From a virus (Duplodnaviria > Caudoviricetes), in IMG/VR virus record IMGVR_UViG_2821042281_000001, positions 1,161 through 65,160 of that record: a DNA stretch of 64,000 nucleotides. One strand, written 5' to 3'. Below the pieces are notes generated by a model, which was not told the DNA's origin, made no database searches, and worked only from the letters and a program-made list of their open reading frames with translations. The position numbers were made by a program, and so were the translations under genes. Below are positions 5,223-47,109 of the stretch, in pieces. Numbering within the stretch: the first letter of the stretch is position 1; every line of letters starts with the position of its first letter.

Positions 5223-6515
5223 CTAGGCCACCCTCCTCTCGCTCGCCACATTATCATTCGCGGCCACGGGCACACGCGCAGCGCCCTTGACCATCGCCGG
5301 CGTCATCCTGTCCCTGGCAACTTCGCCGTATTCTTTGTGATACGTAATACGCTTGGCTGACCTGCCGGACAGCCAGCCGCCGCTTGCGGCATAGTCATCC
5401 TTGGCGGCAAGCGTTTCGTGGCGCTCGACATACATCAGGTTTGTCTTGATGCCTTCGTCGGAATGCTTATGGCCAATGTGGCAGTAGGCCGACAAACTCA
5501 GGCCGTATTCTTTGCGGAACAGGCCAGCCATCGTCACGTCGACGTTGTTGATAGTCCGCTTGTCGCCGTGATGGTAAAACAGCGCTGTCTTGCCCCACGA
5601 GTAGACGTGGTAGTGCATCGGTGAGTTGTCAACGCTTATGCGAGGCTCGTGCTCGTACATGGCCGCGAGCATCTCACGCAGCCATGCCGACGATGCCGGA
5701 TCATGATTGCCGGACGCCATAATAACGTGAACATGCTGGTGCTTCTGCAGAAGCATGTCGATGATGCGCCGGACTGTGCGGATGACGACGCGAATAACCT
5801 TCTGCAAGCGGCTATCCGCGTCTAGGACGTGCCTATGAGCAGGCGTAACGCTTTCGAGGCTATCATGATGCATCAGATCACCCAACTGGGCCAGCACAGC
5901 CGTGTGCGCTTGCGGGGCGGCGGCTACGGCTGCAGCGAACCAGTCCAGTAGCAACTGCTCTGCAATGCGAAGATCGTAATCATCTCCCGTTTCTTCACGC
6001 CATGCCAGCATACCGAAGTGACTGTCTGTCACGACGAACTGGTTAAGTAGTTCGGACGCAACATGCGCAGGAGGAGGCGTAATCGTGACGCGCGGTAGGC
6101 TTTCGGACAGCGCTGCAACAGTTGCATCCAGAATGGCGCGCTGCTGTTGTACATCAGCCCGCTCCATAATGTGCTGAGTAATCACCCGGCCTTCGGCATT
6201 CACGAGCGTCGTCTTGCCTTTGACAGCAAGGCCTGCAGTCGGCTCATAAACTGGACCAGCCTCTTTCGTCTGGCGCACGTAAGTGCCGTTCGGCGTCTCG
6301 GTCAGGCTTTTGATCGCATAGCCGGGCAATGTCGGTGACGGACCCAGCAGCCCAATCTCAGCGGCCCGCTTAATGCTGTCGTGAAATGCCGACTTCTTTA
6401 TGCCAAGCGCCGCCGCAGCCTTAACCAGCGTGCCGTGCTCGCGGTAAGCCTCCGCTCGGCGCAGGAGTTCTTCGTGTGAAAGGCGCGCACCCGCGCCCTG
6501 TCTGTCATGGGACAT
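5223..6515 (-). CDS. Calcineurin-like metallophosphoesterase with N-terminal HTH
   Basis: TDSHFG, LGDLMH, SGNHD, HHGD, IGHKH motifs; AAAALGIKKS HTH. Confidence 0.85.
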   Translation of the reverse strand: MSHDRQGAGARLSHEELLRRAEAYREHGTLVKAAAALGIKKSAFHDSIKRAAEIGLLGPSPTLPGYAIKSLTETPNGTYVRQTKEAGPVYEPTAGLAVKGKTTLVNAEGRVITQHIMERADVQQQRAILDATVAALSESLPRVTITPPPAHVASELLNQFVVTDSHFGMLAWREETGDDYDLRIAEQLLLDWFAAAVAAAPQAHTAVLAQLGDLMHHDSLESVTPAHRHVLDADSRLQKVIRVVIRTVRRIIDMLLQKHQHVHVIMASGNHDPASSAWLREMLAAMYEHEPRISVDNSPMHYHVYSWGKTALFYHHGDKRTINNVDVTMAGLFRKEYGLSLSAYCHIGHKHSDEGIKTNLMYVERHETLAAKDDYAASGGWLSGRSAKRITYHKEYGEVARDRMTPAMVKGAARVPVAANDNVASERRVA

Positions 6516-10554: not shown

Positions 10555-11304
10555 TCACTCAACCACAGCTTCGTGAGACGCCACAGCTTTCGTATAAGCG
10601 ATCAAATCTGCATCGTCATACTCAAACTCGTAACCGTAATATTGAAGCTTTGATTGAATTTCTGAGAGTTCTTTGTTTGACATAAGCATGCTCTCCGCAA
10701 AAATTACCTCAGGATGAAATTTGTCCAAGTCCATGGCGGATAGTATCGTATAGTCATGCCCCTCGCAGTCACTTAAATATACATCGTAATCCTCGCAATG
10801 GGATTCCCTTACAAATTTATTCACTTCTACTACAGAAACACTTCTTTCAATAGTTTTTTCTTGTATCTTAAGAAAATTATCTTCTGATATTAATATTCCG
10901 TCTATCGCGTTTCGATTGCGCTCCAAGGTAGATATTCCCACTGCCCACTCTGGTACGGTTTTATTCAAGATTGCCTCAGGGTCGACCAATCGAATATTGG
11001 ATATTCCATTGTGATCTGAAATCGCCACATTGAAAAATCTAGCCCCCGGGATATGCTGATAGTTTTTTACGAGCAAATCAAAGTATTCAACGATTGGCTC
11101 TACAAAAACCCCAGACACGCCTTTGTGAGTAGAAATAAACCTGAATAACGGGTCGAACCTTTTCCCATCGCACGCTCCGACCTGAAGAACGCGCACAGAT
11201 TGATTTCTTGACTCATACAGCCGTTCTATGCATTGAAGAAGGCGGGCAGTTGATGGTCGCAACTCGGTGGGCAAAATAGCTCTCCGTTGTTCTGGAATTG
11301 TCAA
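10555..11304 (-). CDS. FkbM family methyltransferase
   Basis: LQVGACDG, VFVEP, NVAISD, SDCEGHDY. Confidence 0.85.
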   Translation of the reverse strand: MTIPEQRRAILPTELRPSTARLLQCIERLYESRNQSVRVLQVGACDGKRFDPLFRFISTHKGVSGVFVEPIVEYFDLLVKNYQHIPGARFFNVAISDHNGISNIRLVDPEAILNKTVPEWAVGISTLERNRNAIDGILISEDNFLKIQEKTIERSVSVVEVNKFVRESHCEDYDVYLSDCEGHDYTILSAMDLDKFHPEVIFAESMLMSNKELSEIQSKLQYYGYEFEYDDADLIAYTKAVASHEAVVE

Positions 11305-12977
11305 TCTTGGTTGTTATTGGGCTGGGGATACCAGAATTGTCTATTTTAAAGGCGATTATCAAGCGCTACGCGAAGCGGATTGATAGCGAATCATCGCAAC
11401 AGCAGCAGAGCCATTTCGGCACGCCAGATATAACCACTCCACAACCTTACCATACCTCGGAAGCCGTAGTCTTTCAGCAAACGCATTCCGGTTTCGAAAT
11501 CGATGGGCAACTTTACAAATTTAGTGTTCGCCCCTCGGAGAGTGTTAATGTTGAAGTTAGCTCGTTTTTAGTTGGTGATTTCGAGATGGTTGCCGACCCA
11601 TCACGAGCGGCCCTCGCAGCATTTCGTTTTGTCGATACCGAAGGCAATACTGTATTCCCTCTCGATAGCACCCCTATCAGCCCCGCGGTAGGGCCTTATA
11701 TTTATCTCTCTGGCGACAGCGGCACTCCTAAAACAACTCAAGTGGTTCTCCAAGTCCCCCCTAACGCTAACAGTCTCGAAATTACGTTGAAAAAATGGCG
11801 GAAAGAATTAATCGCTTACGCCAGCCACCCACCTATTGTTTCAATTTTGGAAGGCGCAACTCACGATTCTCAAATTGACCACGTTAGCTCCGCGTTGTCC
11901 GCGCTGGGTGCAGATGACAATCTAACCGTGATCTACAGTACCTCCCCCCTGATGTCGCACCCCTCATTAGGATTACGTCCGAACCGCCTGGCTCGGGAGA
12001 TGGAGAGACGCGGACATACCGTCTTCTTCCTGCCTTTCGGGCGCGTCGCTAATAGCGAAATCCGATACTCAGAGAAGATTTGGCAGTTCCCAAGGGATAT
12101 CCTGCCAGAGATTTTTGACGCGATCGCTGCTTCGAAGCACGGTAACGTCACATTTATTTGCAGTTCGTTTCCAGATATTCAAGCTGTTTGCGCAATTGAT
12201 TTAGCGAATACCTATGGCTGGCGTACGCTGTACGAAGTACGCGACGATATGGAAGAGTTTAACCGCGTCGGTTACTCCAAATGGTACCGGGCGAGACTGG
12301 AAAATTATGTTTGTCGCAAAGCAAAGTACATTACCACAGTCAGCCCTCGATTAGCTACAAAGATGATCGAGAACGGGGCGGAGCCGCAGAAGGTAATGGT
12401 AATACCTAACGGGGTTGAGGCAGGTTTTGTTCAGTCGACAGAAAAGCTGAGATCATTAGACACGCTTAACAGTCGCCGATCGTCTTCCATAATCGGTTAC
12501 ATCGGCCACCTGACCCCATCTTGGTTCGATTGGAGCCTGATAATAAGCACTGCGGTTCATAGGCCGGAATGGACATTTGAGATCATCGGTCACGGCGCTC
12601 CAGGTAATCTCGACCTACCCCAGAATGTCATTCTTCTGGGGCCAAAGACCCACGAGGAATTCATTGAAATTAGCCGGAGATGGCGGATCGGTATGATACC
12701 GTTTAAACCATCGAAGCTTACTTACGGTGTCGATCCTAACAAGCTCTACGAGTATCTCGCCGTCGGATTGCCGGTGATTAGCGCGCCTATGGGCAGCGTA
12801 GATGCAAGCCCTTTAACGTTCGTTTATCAATCGAGATCAGAATTTTCCCAAGGAATTGAGTATCTGTTTAACCAACGGTACGATCACGGCACCGCTCGAG
12901 ATTTGAATCAATATATTGATAATAGTAAATGGGTGTCTCGCCTTGATGCAACTTTGAAATTCATTCAGGTGGCATAG
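11298..12977 (+). CDS. GT-B glycosyltransferase (GT4-like) with extra N-terminal domain; start uncertain
   Basis: VIPNGV, IGYIGHL, PNKLYEYLAVGLPVIS. Confidence 0.85.
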   Translation: MSILVVIGLGIPELSILKAIIKRYAKRIDSESSQQQQSHFGTPDITTPQPYHTSEAVVFQQTHSGFEIDGQLYKFSVRPSESVNVEVSSFLVGDFEMVADPSRAALAAFRFVDTEGNTVFPLDSTPISPAVGPYIYLSGDSGTPKTTQVVLQVPPNANSLEITLKKWRKELIAYASHPPIVSILEGATHDSQIDHVSSALSALGADDNLTVIYSTSPLMSHPSLGLRPNRLAREMERRGHTVFFLPFGRVANSEIRYSEKIWQFPRDILPEIFDAIAASKHGNVTFICSSFPDIQAVCAIDLANTYGWRTLYEVRDDMEEFNRVGYSKWYRARLENYVCRKAKYITTVSPRLATKMIENGAEPQKVMVIPNGVEAGFVQSTEKLRSLDTLNSRRSSSIIGYIGHLTPSWFDWSLIISTAVHRPEWTFEIIGHGAPGNLDLPQNVILLGPKTHEEFIEISRRWRIGMIPFKPSKLTYGVDPNKLYEYLAVGLPVISAPMGSVDASPLTFVYQSRSEFSQGIEYLFNQRYDHGTARDLNQYIDNSKWVSRLDATLKFIQVA

Positions 12978-12982
12978 AATAA

Positions 12983-13960
12983 ATGTCTAAGATACTATCG
13001 ATCTATGTAAATTGCAGTCGCGGTGGAATGGGGACAGTGTATCTCAACCGCGCACTGAATAATCCTGGCGAACACCACACTCTAATTTTCGTTAGTGACA
13101 GGGGTGGATACCATCTGTTCACTGGTTATACAAATATCGATGTGCGCATCATCAGGAAAGACAGGTTGAAATCCTACATCGCATATCTTACGGTCAATTT
13201 TCCATTTGATGAGATCAGGATCACCTCTCTTCCAGAAGTAGTTGAACCTATTTCAAAGCGATTCAATCCTAAAATTGTTTACGAATTTCATACGTCTGTC
13301 CCCGAGATTGTATCTTCCGAACTGACTAAGTTTGACATTGCAAACATTAACTCGATATACGTCCCCAGCGAATTTTCGAGGCAAATGCTGCTTGAGCAAC
13401 TTCCACCAGAAGTAAACAGCCTAGTAGAAGTGCGGGCGAATCAACTCAATACCAACAACATTGACTACCAACCAAGAGATAATTTTCTGTTTTCCAACCA
13501 GATTCCGATACTATGGATCGGTAGATTTGATGCTGGGAAGAATGCTCGGGATTTCCTGAGAATTCTGTCGCAACTGCCAGAGTTATACATCGGTATTGTT
13601 GTGGTAAGCTTGGAGAGCGATCCGAGCAGGCTTGATGATTTTTTGTCGGATGCGTTCGCTTACGGGGTCGAAGACCGAGTCAAAGTGTATTTGAATTTGT
13701 CCCATGAACAAGTTTTCAGTTTATATAACTCAGTCGCTCGCCATAATGGTTATTATTGCAGTACATCATTAAATGAATCGTTCGGCTTCACAGTAGTGGA
13801 GGCCGCAACGCATGGACTTCGGGTGGTCGGATATGATGTTGGTGCTCTGAGTGAGCATCAGAGCAATCTGATTACTCTGTTTCCAGTAGGAGATAATCAA
13901 TCTATCGTGAACCATATACTGGAAACATCTGGCCAAACGCGCGAACCGCTATACGCTTGA
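12983..13960 (+). CDS. GT4 family glycosyltransferase
   Basis: LWIGRFDAGKN, NESFGFTVVEAATHGLRVVGYDVG. Confidence 0.9.
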   Translation: MSKILSIYVNCSRGGMGTVYLNRALNNPGEHHTLIFVSDRGGYHLFTGYTNIDVRIIRKDRLKSYIAYLTVNFPFDEIRITSLPEVVEPISKRFNPKIVYEFHTSVPEIVSSELTKFDIANINSIYVPSEFSRQMLLEQLPPEVNSLVEVRANQLNTNNIDYQPRDNFLFSNQIPILWIGRFDAGKNARDFLRILSQLPELYIGIVVVSLESDPSRLDDFLSDAFAYGVEDRVKVYLNLSHEQVFSLYNSVARHNGYYCSTSLNESFGFTVVEAATHGLRVVGYDVGALSEHQSNLITLFPVGDNQSIVNHILETSGQTREPLYA

Positions 13961-35108: not shown

Positions 35109-35184
35109 TGGTTGCGGGCATCGGGATCGAACCGATCATATCCGGCTTATGAGACCGGCGAGCACACCAGCGCTCTCGCCCGCT
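35109..35184 (-). tRNA. tRNA-Met (CAT), initiator-like but atypical
   Basis: 76-nt cloverleaf: D arm GAGC/GCTC, anticodon loop CTCATAA, T loop TTCGATC, encoded CCA. Confidence 0.88.
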
Positions 35185-42684: not shown

Positions 42685-43256
42685 GATGCCACCCTCCCCA
42701 GCAAATCCTGATTGTCGTTTGCGGCCACATACTTGCCCGCCTCATTCCCCCAAGCCGACCAACCCGGCCACGCTTGGCGCGCGAATAGTTCAAGATACGG
42801 GCCATCGACAAGCCGCTCGATGCGCTCATATTGCTCATCAGGCTTGCGACTATGCTCGCGGCGGGGTGCCTTGATCAGCGAACGCACGCCTTTGCTAAGA
42901 CGACGCGGCTTGCCACGTTTGAACAGATGGCAGATTTCAACTTCCTGTCGGGTCCAATAGCCCATTCCCATGCGCCCCTTGTCCCAGACAAAAGCCACGC
43001 TGACAGGACGGAATCCCCACGATGCAGCAACGTCGAAAGCTTCACGCTGCAGGTGTGAAACGGTCCACATGAACAGCAAACAGTCGCGGGCGCATACCTG
43101 TTCAACAGGTAGCGCCTGGATATCATCTAGCGACATCACGCTGTAAGGCTGGCGACCTCTAGCCGGCGCGACATTCTTTTTGCTGTAGGTTCTAAATGCC
43201 CATGGCGGGTCCGCAAGGACGCAGCCGAAAGGCCCGCTCGGTAGCGGTTCATTCAT
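42681..43256 (-). CDS. MT-A70 family adenine methyltransferase
   Basis: ADPPW, HSRKP, LELFAR, WGNE. Confidence 0.93.
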   Translation of the reverse strand: MNEPLPSGPFGCVLADPPWAFRTYSKKNVAPARGRQPYSVMSLDDIQALPVEQVCARDCLLFMWTVSHLQREAFDVAASWGFRPVSVAFVWDKGRMGMGYWTRQEVEICHLFKRGKPRRLSKGVRSLIKAPRREHSRKPDEQYERIERLVDGPYLELFARQAWPGWSAWGNEAGKYVAANDNQDLLGRVAS

Positions 43257-43546: not shown

Positions 43547-43725
43547 AACACCTTCTCCATACAGGCGCGCATAACCCCGCGCAGTTCATAGAAGTTGCGT
43601 GCTTCGTCGATGGCATTCAGAAGGTACTCGCGGTCCACCTGCTTCCTTGCCTCGTCCAGCCCCATCCCTTGCTCCCGCAAGCGTTTGATGCACGGCACGT
43701 AATCCGCGGGATCTAGCTTCGCCAT
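43543..43725 (-). CDS. Small hypothetical protein
   Basis: Coupled start/stop. Confidence 0.6.
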   Translation of the reverse strand: MAKLDPADYVPCIKRLREQGMGLDEARKQVDREYLLNAIDEARNFYELRGVMRACMEKVL

Positions 43726-44258
43726 CACGCCGCCCTCACCGTAACGCTCGGCTGGCCTTCCCGCAGCACTGCACCCGGCACATCTTCCCCAGCATCCAGC
43801 GCCGCCTTTATCGCCGTCTTGTCTGGCTCGCGCTTCAGCTTCACAACGTTCTCGGGCAGCAGGCTTTCGTCCACATTCTCAACCCCGGCGCGCCCTTTGC
43901 TGACCGACAGAGTTGCTTCCGGCAGACTAACCTTGTTCAGGTTGGCGGCCTTCAACAGACGCAGCAACAAGGCCCGCATGGCGTCCTTGCGTCTGGCGTA
44001 TCGATCTTTGCGCGCGGCCAATTCCTTGGCGCGTTCGCCGATGGCCAGTACCATGCTGTTTGCATCGCGCTCAATTGCTACGATCTTGCCGAGCACGCGA
44101 TAGGCGTCTGTCTCGCCTTCGATTGTGTCGGTGCGCAGTTCCTCATCTTCGGCCAATTCTGGGTATGCCGCAACCAAGTCGGCGAATTCCCGTTCCAGAA
44201 CGGTGACATCATAGGCCAGATAGTTCTGTACTTTCGTGTTGTCGGCTTTGTCCGTCAT
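43725..44258 (-). CDS. Siphovirus Gp157-like protein
   Basis: DTIEGET..PDKTAIKAALDAGEDVPGA. Confidence 0.85.
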   Translation of the reverse strand: MTDKADNTKVQNYLAYDVTVLEREFADLVAAYPELAEDEELRTDTIEGETDAYRVLGKIVAIERDANSMVLAIGERAKELAARKDRYARRKDAMRALLLRLLKAANLNKVSLPEATLSVSKGRAGVENVDESLLPENVVKLKREPDKTAIKAALDAGEDVPGAVLREGQPSVTVRAA

Positions 44259-44422
44259 CATTGCTCCTCGTGTTTCGGTGCTTGGTTTTGGTAAGTTAAC
44301 ATGCCTCGCGGCGCATCCCGTTAATGGATTGGTTTATTTTGATAAACTTAATCCTACTGTTTTAGTGTAATTAATACTGGATTTAACTGTTGCATGCGAC
44401 GGTTGTTTATGTATATTCGCCC

Positions 44423-44486
44423 CACTCTTGGGAGGGAGTTAGACCGCCCAGGCGCGCACCGTCCGCTGCCGGGCGGTTTTTATTTT
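44423..44486 (+). ncRNA. Candidate ~65-nt sRNA with GGGAGGGAG
   Basis: TTGCAT-N16-TATATT at 44390-44417; terminator ACCGCCC/GGGCGGT plus T-tract; no ORF. Confidence 0.4.
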
Positions 44487-44515
44487 CCCTGCATATCAGC
44501 TATGCAGTTTCTGCC

Positions 44516-44544
44516 CTTGCAACGCATGAGTGGGCCGCCTATTT
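44516..44544 (+). promoter_or_regulatory. sigma70-type promoter of the cuckoo-type sRNA
   Basis: CTTGCA-N17-CTATTT, close to rhizobial CTTGAC-N17-CTATAT. Confidence 0.6.
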
Positions 44545-44550
44545 ACGCCT

Positions 44551-44668
44551 CGTCCGGTTTTACTCCTCCTCCCAGAAACCGGACCCTAAGCGCGGTACTC
44601 CTCCTCCCAACCGCGCTTTTCAGATCGGCCCGCTTCGCTCCTCCTCCCAATCGCGAAGCGGGCTTTTC
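44551..44668 (+). ncRNA. alpha-r14/'cuckoo'-type sRNA with three CUCCUCCC-loop hairpins
   Basis: Three perfect stems (9, 9, 11 bp), each with a TCCTCCTCCCA loop; last followed by Ts. Confidence 0.88.
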
Positions 44669-44826
44669 TATTTCATGCAGTTGCGGTGCCTATTGTTGGC
44701 AACCGTTACATTCTGTTATTTCACCATTCGCTACTATGCCCATATTCTGGTGCCGCAAACCTTCTCTGGAATGCATCCGCATCGCATGAACCAGAGCCCC
44801 CGCCCCAACATGCGATGCGGAACTCC

Positions 44827-46551
44827 CTAGAACGGAATATCGTCATCCATTGCGTCAGCCAGCCCGGCAGATACTCGGCCATAGTTTGCCGTAGGCACAT
44901 TGTCGTTGCTCGCCTCCGGCACGTTGTCATTCGCAGCGCCCGGCACAGCGTCAACGACTTCCCAATATTTGCCGTTCGGCTTGACCACGATCTCGGCGGT
45001 CGGTAGCAGCTCGTTCTGGCGCTCCATGAATTCCAGCACGGTTTTCGGGAACGGTGCCTGACCGCCGTGCTTTCGCCACCACCTGTCTGACTTCGACTTG
45101 AAGAAGCCTGTATGGGCGGGTCCGAGCCATTCGTTGATTGGCGACATGCCAACCCAGTAGGACACCTTCACACTGTCCTGCTTACCGGCCTTGCCTTCGT
45201 GGTATGCGAAGGTGCGGCGCTCCACCTGGCGGGTGCTGGCGTTGTCCTTCGACAACATCGGCACGTCTTCGGCCTGCGCTGATATCTTCGGAGTTTCGTC
45301 GACCGGGAATTCGTATCCGCAGTCTGGACAGGTATGCAGCGAAGCATGGATCAGCGAACCGCAGCCTACTAAACCACGATCGTCAGGCTCTTGCGGACAT
45401 TGCTTCACAGGCGCCTCGCCGTCGCCTTTTGTCATCCCCGGAGGCGTGACCGCGTCTATAGGGCCGTGCTTGCGAACGACGCCAGCGAAGTCCAGAAACA
45501 GGCAGTTTTCCTTGCCGGGATAGAGGCGCAGACCGCGCCCCGCCATCTGGACATAAAGGCCCGCTGATAAGGTTGGGCGACAGAACGCGACCAGATCGAT
45601 GATCGGCAGGTTCGTGCCGGTTGTCAGTACCGAGTTATTCGTCAAGGCGCGGATCTTGCCAGCCTTAAAATCAGCCAGAATGCGGTCACGTTCACCAGTT
45701 GGAGTGTCTCCGGTCACTGTTTCGCAGCTAAATCCACGGCTGCGTATTTCATCCCGCATATGCCGGGCATGTTCGACGCCACTGCAAAAGCACAGCCAAG
45801 CCTTGCGCTCTGCACCGGACGCCGTACCATACGTGACGATCTCATCGACCACGGAAGCCGTGATATCGTCTTTATCGATAGCCGCCTGCAGAGCGTTCTG
45901 CTTGTAGTCGCCGCCCTGCTTGCCAACGCCGGACAGGTCGAAGGCAGTCGCCATGCCCTTTGAGATAGGACGGCAGAGATAGCCTTCCTCGATCATCTCG
46001 CCAATCGGCTTTTCAAAGCAGATGTCGTCAAAAAGCGCGCCGTCACCTTCCGTCAAAAGCCCCTCGCCCAAACGATAAGGCGTGGCCGTGAGGCCGACCA
46101 GCTTCAGGTCTGGATTGATGGCGCGCAGGCCTTCGATCAGCTTGCCATACTGCGTTTCGGAGTTGCGCGGCATCAGATGGGCTTCATCGACCAGAACGAC
46201 GTCTATGTGACCAATTTGGGCTGTTTTGCTAGCAATGGTCTGCACACCGCCGAAAACGATCTGCGCCTTCGCATCGCGCCGACCTACGCCAGCCGAGAAA
46301 ATACCCGCAGGCGCGAAGGGCCAGATGTTAAGAAGCTCCTGATAGTTCGATAGGATCAATTCGCGTACATGTGTCACCACGAGCACGCGCATGTCGGGCC
46401 AACGTTCGATCAATTCCTTGCAGATCGTACCCAACACGAGGCTCTTGCCGCCGCCCGTAGGAAGCACGATAAGAGGGGAGCCGGGTTGCTCGCGCCAGTA
46501 GTCATACAGGCCGTCAACTGCGGAGCGTTGATAATCGCGTAAGGTTAGCAT
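44827..46551 (-). CDS. SF2 DEAD/DEAH helicase with zinc finger
   Basis: PTGGGKS, DEAH, LTATP, QMAGRGLR; DDDIPF tail. Confidence 0.95.
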   Translation of the reverse strand: MLTLRDYQRSAVDGLYDYWREQPGSPLIVLPTGGGKSLVLGTICKELIERWPDMRVLVVTHVRELILSNYQELLNIWPFAPAGIFSAGVGRRDAKAQIVFGGVQTIASKTAQIGHIDVVLVDEAHLMPRNSETQYGKLIEGLRAINPDLKLVGLTATPYRLGEGLLTEGDGALFDDICFEKPIGEMIEEGYLCRPISKGMATAFDLSGVGKQGGDYKQNALQAAIDKDDITASVVDEIVTYGTASGAERKAWLCFCSGVEHARHMRDEIRSRGFSCETVTGDTPTGERDRILADFKAGKIRALTNNSVLTTGTNLPIIDLVAFCRPTLSAGLYVQMAGRGLRLYPGKENCLFLDFAGVVRKHGPIDAVTPPGMTKGDGEAPVKQCPQEPDDRGLVGCGSLIHASLHTCPDCGYEFPVDETPKISAQAEDVPMLSKDNASTRQVERRTFAYHEGKAGKQDSVKVSYWVGMSPINEWLGPAHTGFFKSKSDRWWRKHGGQAPFPKTVLEFMERQNELLPTAEIVVKPNGKYWEVVDAVPGAANDNVPEASNDNVPTANYGRVSAGLADAMDDDIPF

Positions 46552-46554
46552 TGA

Positions 46555-47109
46555 ATGGACCTCAAACTTCAACCGAGTGATTATATTGCTGGTGTTTCTG
46601 CCATCGGAGCCGCTTTAGCGGCGTGCTTCGCGTGGATGTCCGCAAAGCAATCAAAGCGACAGGCAGACGCAGTATTGGGCGACGTGGAGCCAAGTTTTGG
46701 CGCGTATCAGAACCCGCCAGATGAGTATTCAGAGCAAGCTTCATTGAGCATTGAGATTGTCAATCACAATAAGAGGCCACTGCTCATTGAAGAGCTCTCA
46801 TTCGAATACCCTCCGTCGGTGATCATCTTCTCCGATTCAGAGACGTTACGAGGTGTCATTGAGTCTATTTTTGATGCCATGAAGGACGGTCCGCGCATCA
46901 AACGATTTGAAATTCCACTTCGCTTAAGAGGACGTGGGACAAATGAGCAATCGAGCTTACTAACGATACCGATGCGATGTAGCTGGAAGATCGGCGAAGA
47001 ACGGGCACCGATCAACTTCTACGTCAGAGTTCGATACCGGCAGGAAGGCGATCGCGATACGGAAGATGCATACATTGGCGTGCAAATACTGCCTCCGAAA
47101 ATCATTTAA
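46555..47109 (+). CDS. Membrane-anchored moron inserted antisense between exonuclease and helicase
   Basis: N-terminal TM; AT-richer codons. Confidence 0.65.
   Translation: MDLKLQPSDYIAGVSAIGAALAACFAWMSAKQSKRQADAVLGDVEPSFGAYQNPPDEYSEQASLSIEIVNHNKRPLLIEELSFEYPPSVIIFSDSETLRGVIESIFDAMKDGPRIKRFEIPLRLRGRGTNEQSSLLTIPMRCSWKIGEERAPINFYVRVRYRQEGDRDTEDAYIGVQILPPKII

Follow-up and report, generated by a model that had tools for sequence, protein, structure and literature searches.

The segment from 44548 to 44668 on the plus strand of the window (the whole stretch of 64,000 nucleotides analysed here) is a bona fide small RNA (sRNA) gene of the ar14 or 'cuckoo' type, directed against Shine-Dalgarno (SD) sequences and carried by a temperate phage. 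It belongs to an optional cassette of roughly 0.5 kb, a moron, in the slot behind a helicase gene. On balance we favour a reading in which a host-controlled anti-SD sRNA made from the prophage adds to the ar14 regulon of the host, with a second, smaller RNA encoded just upstream as its partner.

The source of the window (bases 1161-65160) is a 65,160-base IMG/VR provirus record, rated 100% complete and with one ar14 match. The provirus is 16-3-like, a temperate siphovirus from Ochrobactrum-group Brucellaceae. Its tail, capsid, portal and terminase genes occupy 14.7-34.2 kb and an integrase gene runs off the right end of the window. The nearest isolated phages, judged by the helicase, are Rhizobium phage RHph_TM3_3_14B at 54.6% and the 16-3 group at about 44-46%, and an exonuclease-sigma-helicase gene order is common to these and to the window phage. 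Related prophages are found in genomes titled Brucella (Ochrobactrum-group), Ochrobactrum, Falsochrobactrum and Paenochrobactrum, and these genomes place the locus within the taxonomic range of ar14 (Rhizobiaceae, Brucellaceae or Phyllobacteriaceae). In three isolated relatives, Rhizobium phages 16-3 and RHph_TM3_3_14B and Sinorhizobium phage AP-16-3, no ar14 match exceeds the cut-off, and a blastn comparison of the cassette with GenBank phages gave no match. Elsewhere in the window a tRNA-Met gene (anticodon CAT; 35109-35184, minus strand) lies between the packaging and replication modules, and an FkbM-type methyltransferase gene and two glycosyltransferase genes stand beside the tail-fibre genes at 10555-13960. 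The latter may represent surface-sugar conversion cargo, or host flank.

The sequence-only reading had placed a prophage-borne RNA gene inside the replication module and opposed to it, and the annotation bears this out. The helicase gene and the gp157 gene on either side are both on the minus strand, hence the sRNA gene points against the replication genes. Further neighbours on the minus strand encode a Cas4-type exonuclease, a DnaN-like clamp, two DNA methylases and a primase-polymerase. The features of the locus are as follows.

43725-44261, minus strand: Siphovirus Gp157 / Mu Gam-like gene, flanking the sRNA cassette
44389-44417, plus strand: promoter-like hexamers of a mini-gene (GTTGCA, 17 nt, TATATT), read from the sequence
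44424-44486, plus strand: candidate mini-RNA of about 60 nt, with SD-like UUGGGAGGGAG at 44428-44438, a terminator hairpin at 44443-44477 and a T-run at 44477-44486
44490-44506, no strand assigned: 17-bp dyad box TGCATATCAGCTATGCA, a candidate LysR-type regulator (LTTR) site of the VtlR/LsrB type, from pattern match and conservation
44516-44544, plus strand: sigma-70-type promoter of the sRNA gene (CTTGCA, 17 nt, CTATTT), read from the sequence
44548-44668, plus strand: ar14-family sRNA gene, three hairpins with anti-SD loops, the third hairpin being the terminator
44700-44826, plus strand: third conserved non-coding unit, with GTTGGC..TTATTT resembling a promoter, a CU-rich motif and, directly against the helicase stop, a 13-bp hairpin
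44827-46572, minus strand: SF2 DNA helicase gene, its 3' end facing the 3' end of the sRNA gene

A cuckoo/alpha-r14 identity had been suggested from the letters, with an Rfam search as the check. That search was run, using cmscan at the gathering threshold, and 44548-44668 (plus strand) matches ar14 (RF02344, the NfeR1/'cuckoo' family) with 81.2 bits against a gathering score of 58.8 and an E-value of 4.5e-13. The match spans the full model, positions 1-123 of 123, and is one of two obtained when the whole window was scanned at curated thresholds. A permissive scan of the locus added sub-threshold matches only, all to related anti-SD families; for CcsR1 (RF02791) the score is 28.8 bits against a cut-off of 65.3, too low for membership of that family.

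The segment 44540-44675 folds into hairpins at 44552-44584, 44588-44618 and 44627-44664. Each presents CUCCUCCUCCCA in its loop (44563-74, 44598-609 and 44638-49), and the anti-SD motif CUCCUCCC is unpaired in all three, the minimum free energy (MFE) and centroid folds being in agreement. The MFE of -54.2 kcal/mol corresponds to z = -9.2 and none of 200 shuffles is as stable, so that the three hairpins with a shared anti-SD loop, noticed at the outset, stand. So does the terminator proposed with them: the third hairpin has a 12-bp GC-rich stem and is followed by UUUUCUAUUU, the U-run. A simple terminator scan missed it because the loop exceeds the 8-nt limit of the scan. Two long plus-strand open reading frames (ORFs) over the cassette (146 and 131 aa) were considered as genes and rejected, since the open frames are not retained in relatives.

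A sigma70-like promoter belonging to the sRNA gene itself had also been claimed, and a candidate of the alphaproteobacterial type is present. With the -35 hexamer at 44516-21, the -10 hexamer at 44539-44 and a spacer of 17 nt, it fits CTTGAC-N17-CTATAT at 9 of 12 positions, this being the alphaproteobacterial sigma-70 consensus in PMC8844928. An E. coli-type promoter scan of 43600-45400 returned no promoter and likewise missed the hexamers of the mini-gene. The call rests on the alphaproteobacterial consensus together with conservation, the position being kept in both phage clades and the geometry being that of the host chromosomal copies.

The dyad TGCATATCAGCTATGCA ends nine bases upstream of the -35 hexamer, and within it the pattern GCAT-N3-TG-N3-T occurs on the minus strand only (44493-44505). 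In PMC8844928 this pattern is put forward as the VtlR/LsrB site in B. abortus and A. tumefaciens, located at -61 to -49 of the AbcR1 promoter; AbcR1 depends on VtlR/LsrB and is controlled by VtlR in Brucella and Agrobacterium. LsrB is described in PMC10746234 as indispensable for transcription of NfeR1 and AbcR1 in S. meliloti. The pattern keeps a constant distance to loop 1 in 22 of the 24 distinct promoter variants, and the two misses are extraction errors from a variant first loop. It is on the sRNA strand in 14 of the 22 and on the opposite strand in eight, the window among the eight. Across the window the bare pattern is not enriched (14 occurrences vs 10.8 expected), and the telling feature of the box appears to be its fixed place and conservation, not pattern frequency. 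Chromosomal ar14 genes of type A (five loci) have the same box, with a 9-nt gap to the -35 hexamer and 73 nt to loop 1, and the chromosome-1 AbcR (ar15) genes of three genomes carry CGCATAGCTGCATTGCG in a near-identical layout. We infer that expression of the phage copy is governed by the host regulator of these genes, of the VtlR/LsrB type.

How widespread is the gene among related phages? The exact two-loop pattern occurs in 58 viral contigs and, when the Rfam model was applied to 49 of these records, 37 scored above the ar14 cut-off. A helicase homologue stands beside the RNA gene in 44 of the 58, with identities in two bands (94-97% and 47-56%), and 14 lack this neighbour. One viral locus, L034 (viral record G033, 43006-43130 of 43,496), has the best viral ar14 score, 106.9 bits; lying within 500 bases of the provirus end, it may be host flank. 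A fair rate of carriage was obtained from loci picked by helicase alone, comprising 80 viral contigs of which five had too little flank. The cassette is present in 42 of the 75 assessable contigs and in all three bands of helicase identity (high 19/29, middle 20/40, low 3/6). It is also present in 5 of 15 loci from one-per-species genomes of the Brucella/Ochrobactrum group. Since the cassette is absent from 33 of the 75 contigs and 10 of the 15 genome loci, the phage can dispense with it.

In relatives that lack the cassette the helicase stop runs almost straight into the leader of the next gene. The unit, equipped with a promoter and a terminator of its own and inserted between neighbouring genes in a phage operon, is carried by some relatives and missing from others, as is typical of a moron. 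This slot appears to be a hot spot for such elements. Some relatives have a small protein-coding insert in the same slot. In L067 and L064 (about 5,700-6,400) the inserts are on the opposite strand and one has a signal-peptide-like start and its own terminator. A further observation concerns an inverted element, GTTAAC...GTTAAC, found at 44300-44335 just upstream of the gp157 leader and, in cassette-less relatives, directly after the helicase stop; it could be an operator or a processing site. The third non-coding unit is also conserved. Its CU-rich motif reads UCCUCCU in relatives and is degenerate in the window, its hairpin has a C-rich loop, a z of -4.5 and compensatory stem changes among relatives, and it occurs in two relatives without ar14 as well.

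A single consensus fold of 30 predicted pairs fits the 20 distinct sRNA sequences; eight of the pairs show compensatory changes, there is one broken cell, and all three stems are kept. In this set the CCUCCUCC core is retained in every loop but one, the third loop of copy L055, which ends in U. Across the two phage clades, identity is 74% for the sRNA and 71% for the mini-RNA, compared with 59.6% for helicase DNA. Might the gene nonetheless be a functionless passenger, host DNA that was acquired by the phage and has not yet decayed? The optional presence would suit such an origin. Against it stand retention across two to three helicase clades that have diverged, a loop core that hardly varies, compensatory changes in the stems, a conserved promoter and box, and conservation exceeding that of the adjoining helicase DNA, together with the placement of the phage copies in old clades of their own apart from the chromosomal copies. 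We regard this explanation as very improbable.

The orientation of the gene invites another explanation. Lytic read-through from the helicase to gp157 would be perfectly complementary to the sRNA, and cutting of the duplex by RNase III could uncouple the downstream genes or turn the sRNA off during lytic growth. The sRNA lies opposite to the flanking genes, with 3' ends facing the helicase, in 44 of 44 viral contigs with the helicase context, and the cassette terminators have no T-run on the minus strand, so lytic transcripts should pass. Such a transcript would make antisense of the sRNA. However the sRNA overlaps no coding sequence or ribosome-binding site: its 3' end (44668) is 159 nt from the helicase stop (44827) and about 290 nt separate its start from that of gp157 (44261). 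The constant orientation is equally explained by a need not to terminate the phage operon, which would be spared from the two terminators of the cassette, and the same two-RNA module occurs at chromosomal sites that have no antisense partner. We judge a cis-antisense role improbable.

The sequence-only reading had also tied the loops to a leader repeated in the phage itself, ACACGAGGAG. The repeat is real. There are 13 exact copies in the window, mostly in the early region, 12 of which lie 2-8 nt before a start codon, and with one mismatch or fewer the count is 15 vs 3.2 expected. The copies are located as follows.

44264-44273, minus strand: ACACGAGGAG ribosome-binding leader of the Gp157-like gene, one of the 13 (the copy given as 44273 in the next line)
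37741, 43272, 44273, 49667, 50109, 50352, 52048, 54165, 54276, 56726 and 6530, minus strand: ACACGAGGAG leaders
57702 and 58825, plus strand: ACACGAGGAG leaders

The sRNA could then act on the phage, pairing with the leaders of early genes and damping leaky lytic expression or the translation of a superinfecting relative. The loops do hold the exact complement of GAGGAG, as had been claimed, but this part of the claim proves trivial: only these 6 nt of the leader are complementary, and any strong SD sequence would equal that. Loop/leader duplexes have energies of -10.4 to -14.3 kcal/mol, which are ordinary against a background of 8,528 random 45-nt windows from the same DNA (mean -6.3, standard deviation 3.4, 5th percentile -12.6). 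After a rough opening-energy term for accessibility the leaders range from -0.2 to -10.2, and six of the 13 reach -8 kcal/mol or better, a range treated as favourable in the NfeR1 preprint (bioRxiv 10.1101/2025.11.14.688489). Against this, the leader is conserved, its ACAC part included, in related phages with and without the cassette and is thus independent of the sRNA, the cassette itself is optional, and the chromosomal ar14 copies of the host share the CCUCCUCCC core, so no new specificity comes with the phage copy. We judge it unlikely that the role of the gene is to silence the leaders of the phage itself. Reprogramming of host mRNAs in the lysogen seems to fit better with the moron-like distribution and the host-type box.

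The upstream mini-gene supplies the second component of the cassette. Its terminator was detected by the terminator scan, and because the gene upstream is divergent (gp157 in the window, a TonB-dependent receptor gene at one chromosomal site) this terminator can only end a transcript born in the spacer. The promoter-like hexamers are kept at the same spacing in every variant listed (GTTGCT-N17-TATTGT type) while the spacer sequence varies. A consensus fold of 15 variants shows the terminator pair at columns 51/59 switching from G-C to A-U. Among relatives the mini-RNA has no conserved ORF, and it has no Rfam match at E<=5. The mini-gene is present in all 42 cassette-bearing helicase loci.

A covariance model (R1) built from the 15 variants matched 34 of 41 sampled genomes of the genus, at 58 places, and 4 of 121 genomes sampled across the family under filters stricter than those of the genus search. 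Sequence was fetched for 30 places, and in 29 of them two or more anti-SD loops follow 76-310 nt downstream on the same strand; 19 of the 20 of these given to Rfam have ar14 above the cut-off just downstream. The gap between mini-gene and ar14 gene is 130 to about 285 nt. The 30 modules lie in varied surroundings: beside the phage helicase (six), with an AI-2E transporter and a TonB receptor gene (seven), with a conserved unknown ORF and two modules back to back (eight) or in unknown context (nine), and the flanks of L107, L108 and L110 gave no informative PHROG matches. At L095/L087 (G050 contig 2, 1285314-1286307), and in seven other genomes, two mini-gene/ar14 modules are arranged back to back with about 480 nt between them, next to a conserved ORF that belongs to no known family. 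In a quick tree of 43 distinct modules each chromosomal context forms its own starred clade, and the phage modules fall in two old clades apart from the chromosomal ones, a single all-phage clade not being rejected (p-AU 0.07).

The G-rich 5' segment of the mini-RNA varies, yet is always complementary to the ar14 loop over 7-8 nt. For 21 of the 22 distinct variants the energy of the mini-RNA/loop duplex lies between -14.9 and -20.4 kcal/mol, the 22nd having been mis-extracted. RNAcofold of the sRNA with the mini-RNA gave a gain of -2.4 kcal/mol vs -1.95 for shuffled seeds, 32 of 100 shuffles doing as well, in a calculation that cannot place an intermolecular helix within a closed hairpin loop. 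By plain duplex energy the mini-RNA (-16.8 kcal/mol) would be much preferred to the leaders, but with the opening-energy term its variants range from -6.3 to -11.1 and the gap nearly vanishes; energy is for that reason not used here to choose between the two. The candidate mini-RNA is a conserved companion of ar14 and probably its pairing partner.

There is a precedent for such a role. In bioRxiv 10.1101/2025.11.14.688489 an RBS-like stretch of SmelC549 pairs with NfeR1's three aSD motifs and lowers NfeR1 post-transcriptionally, as a sponge, which is the role proposed for the mini-RNA. As described there SmelC549 differs in being 258 nt long, encoding a 25-aa peptide and being unlinked to nfeR1, whereas the mini-RNA, of about 60 nt and without an ORF, is encoded directly upstream of ar14. 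A broader proposal, which we put forward tentatively, is that ar14 and a dedicated SD mimic of about 60 nt (a sponge or threshold setter, or a competitor for C/U-rich partners) form a portable two-RNA module, ancient in the chromosomes of the genus and moved between strains by temperate phages under host VtlR/LsrB. Were this true, the 'cuckoo' RNAs would gain a literal vehicle for spreading.

The favoured reading, that the prophage sRNA adds to the host regulon, can be set out in steps. In the lysogen, host RNA polymerase with sigma-70 would start transcription at about 44550 from CTTGCA-N17-CTATTT, aided by a host LysR-type regulator of the VtlR/LsrB type at the upstream GCAT-N3-TG-N3-T, and would stop at the third hairpin. 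The resulting RNA of about 120 nt would offer three redundant CUCCUCCUCCCA loops to pair with SD regions and block translation, as for NfeR1, whose three redundant aSD motifs silence mRNAs at ribosome-binding sites according to PMC7143759 and bioRxiv 10.1101/2025.11.14.688489. Because the loop core is the same as that of the host ar14 copies, the sRNA most likely joins the host regulon, giving lysogenic conversion at the level of RNA rather than a phage-specific circuit. The five genomes of the genus examined have five ar14 places above the cut-off each, and for this reason the phage copy may be redundant.

Twenty sequencing runs matched the locus and four of these are recorded as RNA. The RNA-library matches over 43700-45300 are assembled contigs (Logan) of relatives, 90-99% alike and with depth 3-9. 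Two soil metatranscriptome runs from one study cover 44309-44595 and also gp157 and the helicase, in contigs that show neither strand nor transcript ends and for which DNA carry-over is possible.

Lysogenic conversion by small RNAs is known mainly from enterobacteria, and the phage ar14 gene would extend it to the alphaproteobacteria. Few riboregulators of Rhizobiales act as broadly as the ar14/NfeR1 'cuckoo' RNAs, and the locus shows a concrete vehicle for them, a temperate phage lineage with an intact, conserved ar14 gene wired to a host regulator box. The uncatalogued mini-RNA gene, tightly linked to one ar14 subtype genus-wide, is a testable candidate for one half of a linked pair of sRNA and antagonist. 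The patchy copy number of ar14 has been explained by duplication and by horizontal transfer of an unspecified kind (PMC3346310). The word phage is absent from the family papers PMC4615179 and PMC3346310, and our search, with subscription journals and supplements outside it, found no publication tying the cuckoo/NfeR1/Smr14C/CCUCCUCCC family to a phage or prophage.

Several known systems invite comparison with the locus. Phage morons are, as here, independent units between operon genes that vary among close relatives; the cargo in this case is non-coding, with two small RNA units and possibly a third. Lambda OOP and P22 sar are short antisense RNAs against the phage early operon that overlap a coding end or a ribosome-binding site. 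The phage ar14 gene is also transcribed against the early operon but overlaps neither. DicF and AgvB/AsxR are sRNAs and anti-sRNAs of enterobacterial prophages, with their own promoter and terminator, that act on host core regulons. They belong to other families and hosts and differ in chaperone dependence, whereas the phage ar14 is paralogous to a family of host sRNAs and bears a box of the host regulator's type. The CcsR RNAs follow a small DUF1127 gene; the phage sRNA locus contains no DUF1127-type small ORF. CcsR1-4 (RSs0680, the 'cuckoo' RNAs of Rhodobacter, RF02791) bear the CCUCCUCCC loop motif on stem-loops, as here (PMC4615179), with two hairpins in place of three.

The closest likeness is to NfeR1 (Smr14C2) of Sinorhizobium meliloti and the ar14 family. 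In PMC7143759, PMC3346310 and PMC10746234 these RNAs have three hairpins with CCUCCUCCC unpaired in every loop, the third hairpin being the terminator, and a sigma-70 promoter with an upstream LysR-type box (a candidate box in the window), and they come from Rhizobiales/Brucellaceae. Smr14C2/C3 form an ar14 pair in tandem, and the phage ar14 gene is without a second tandem copy. It differs further in being carried by a temperate phage, antisense inside a replication module, with an SD-like mini-gene directly upstream.
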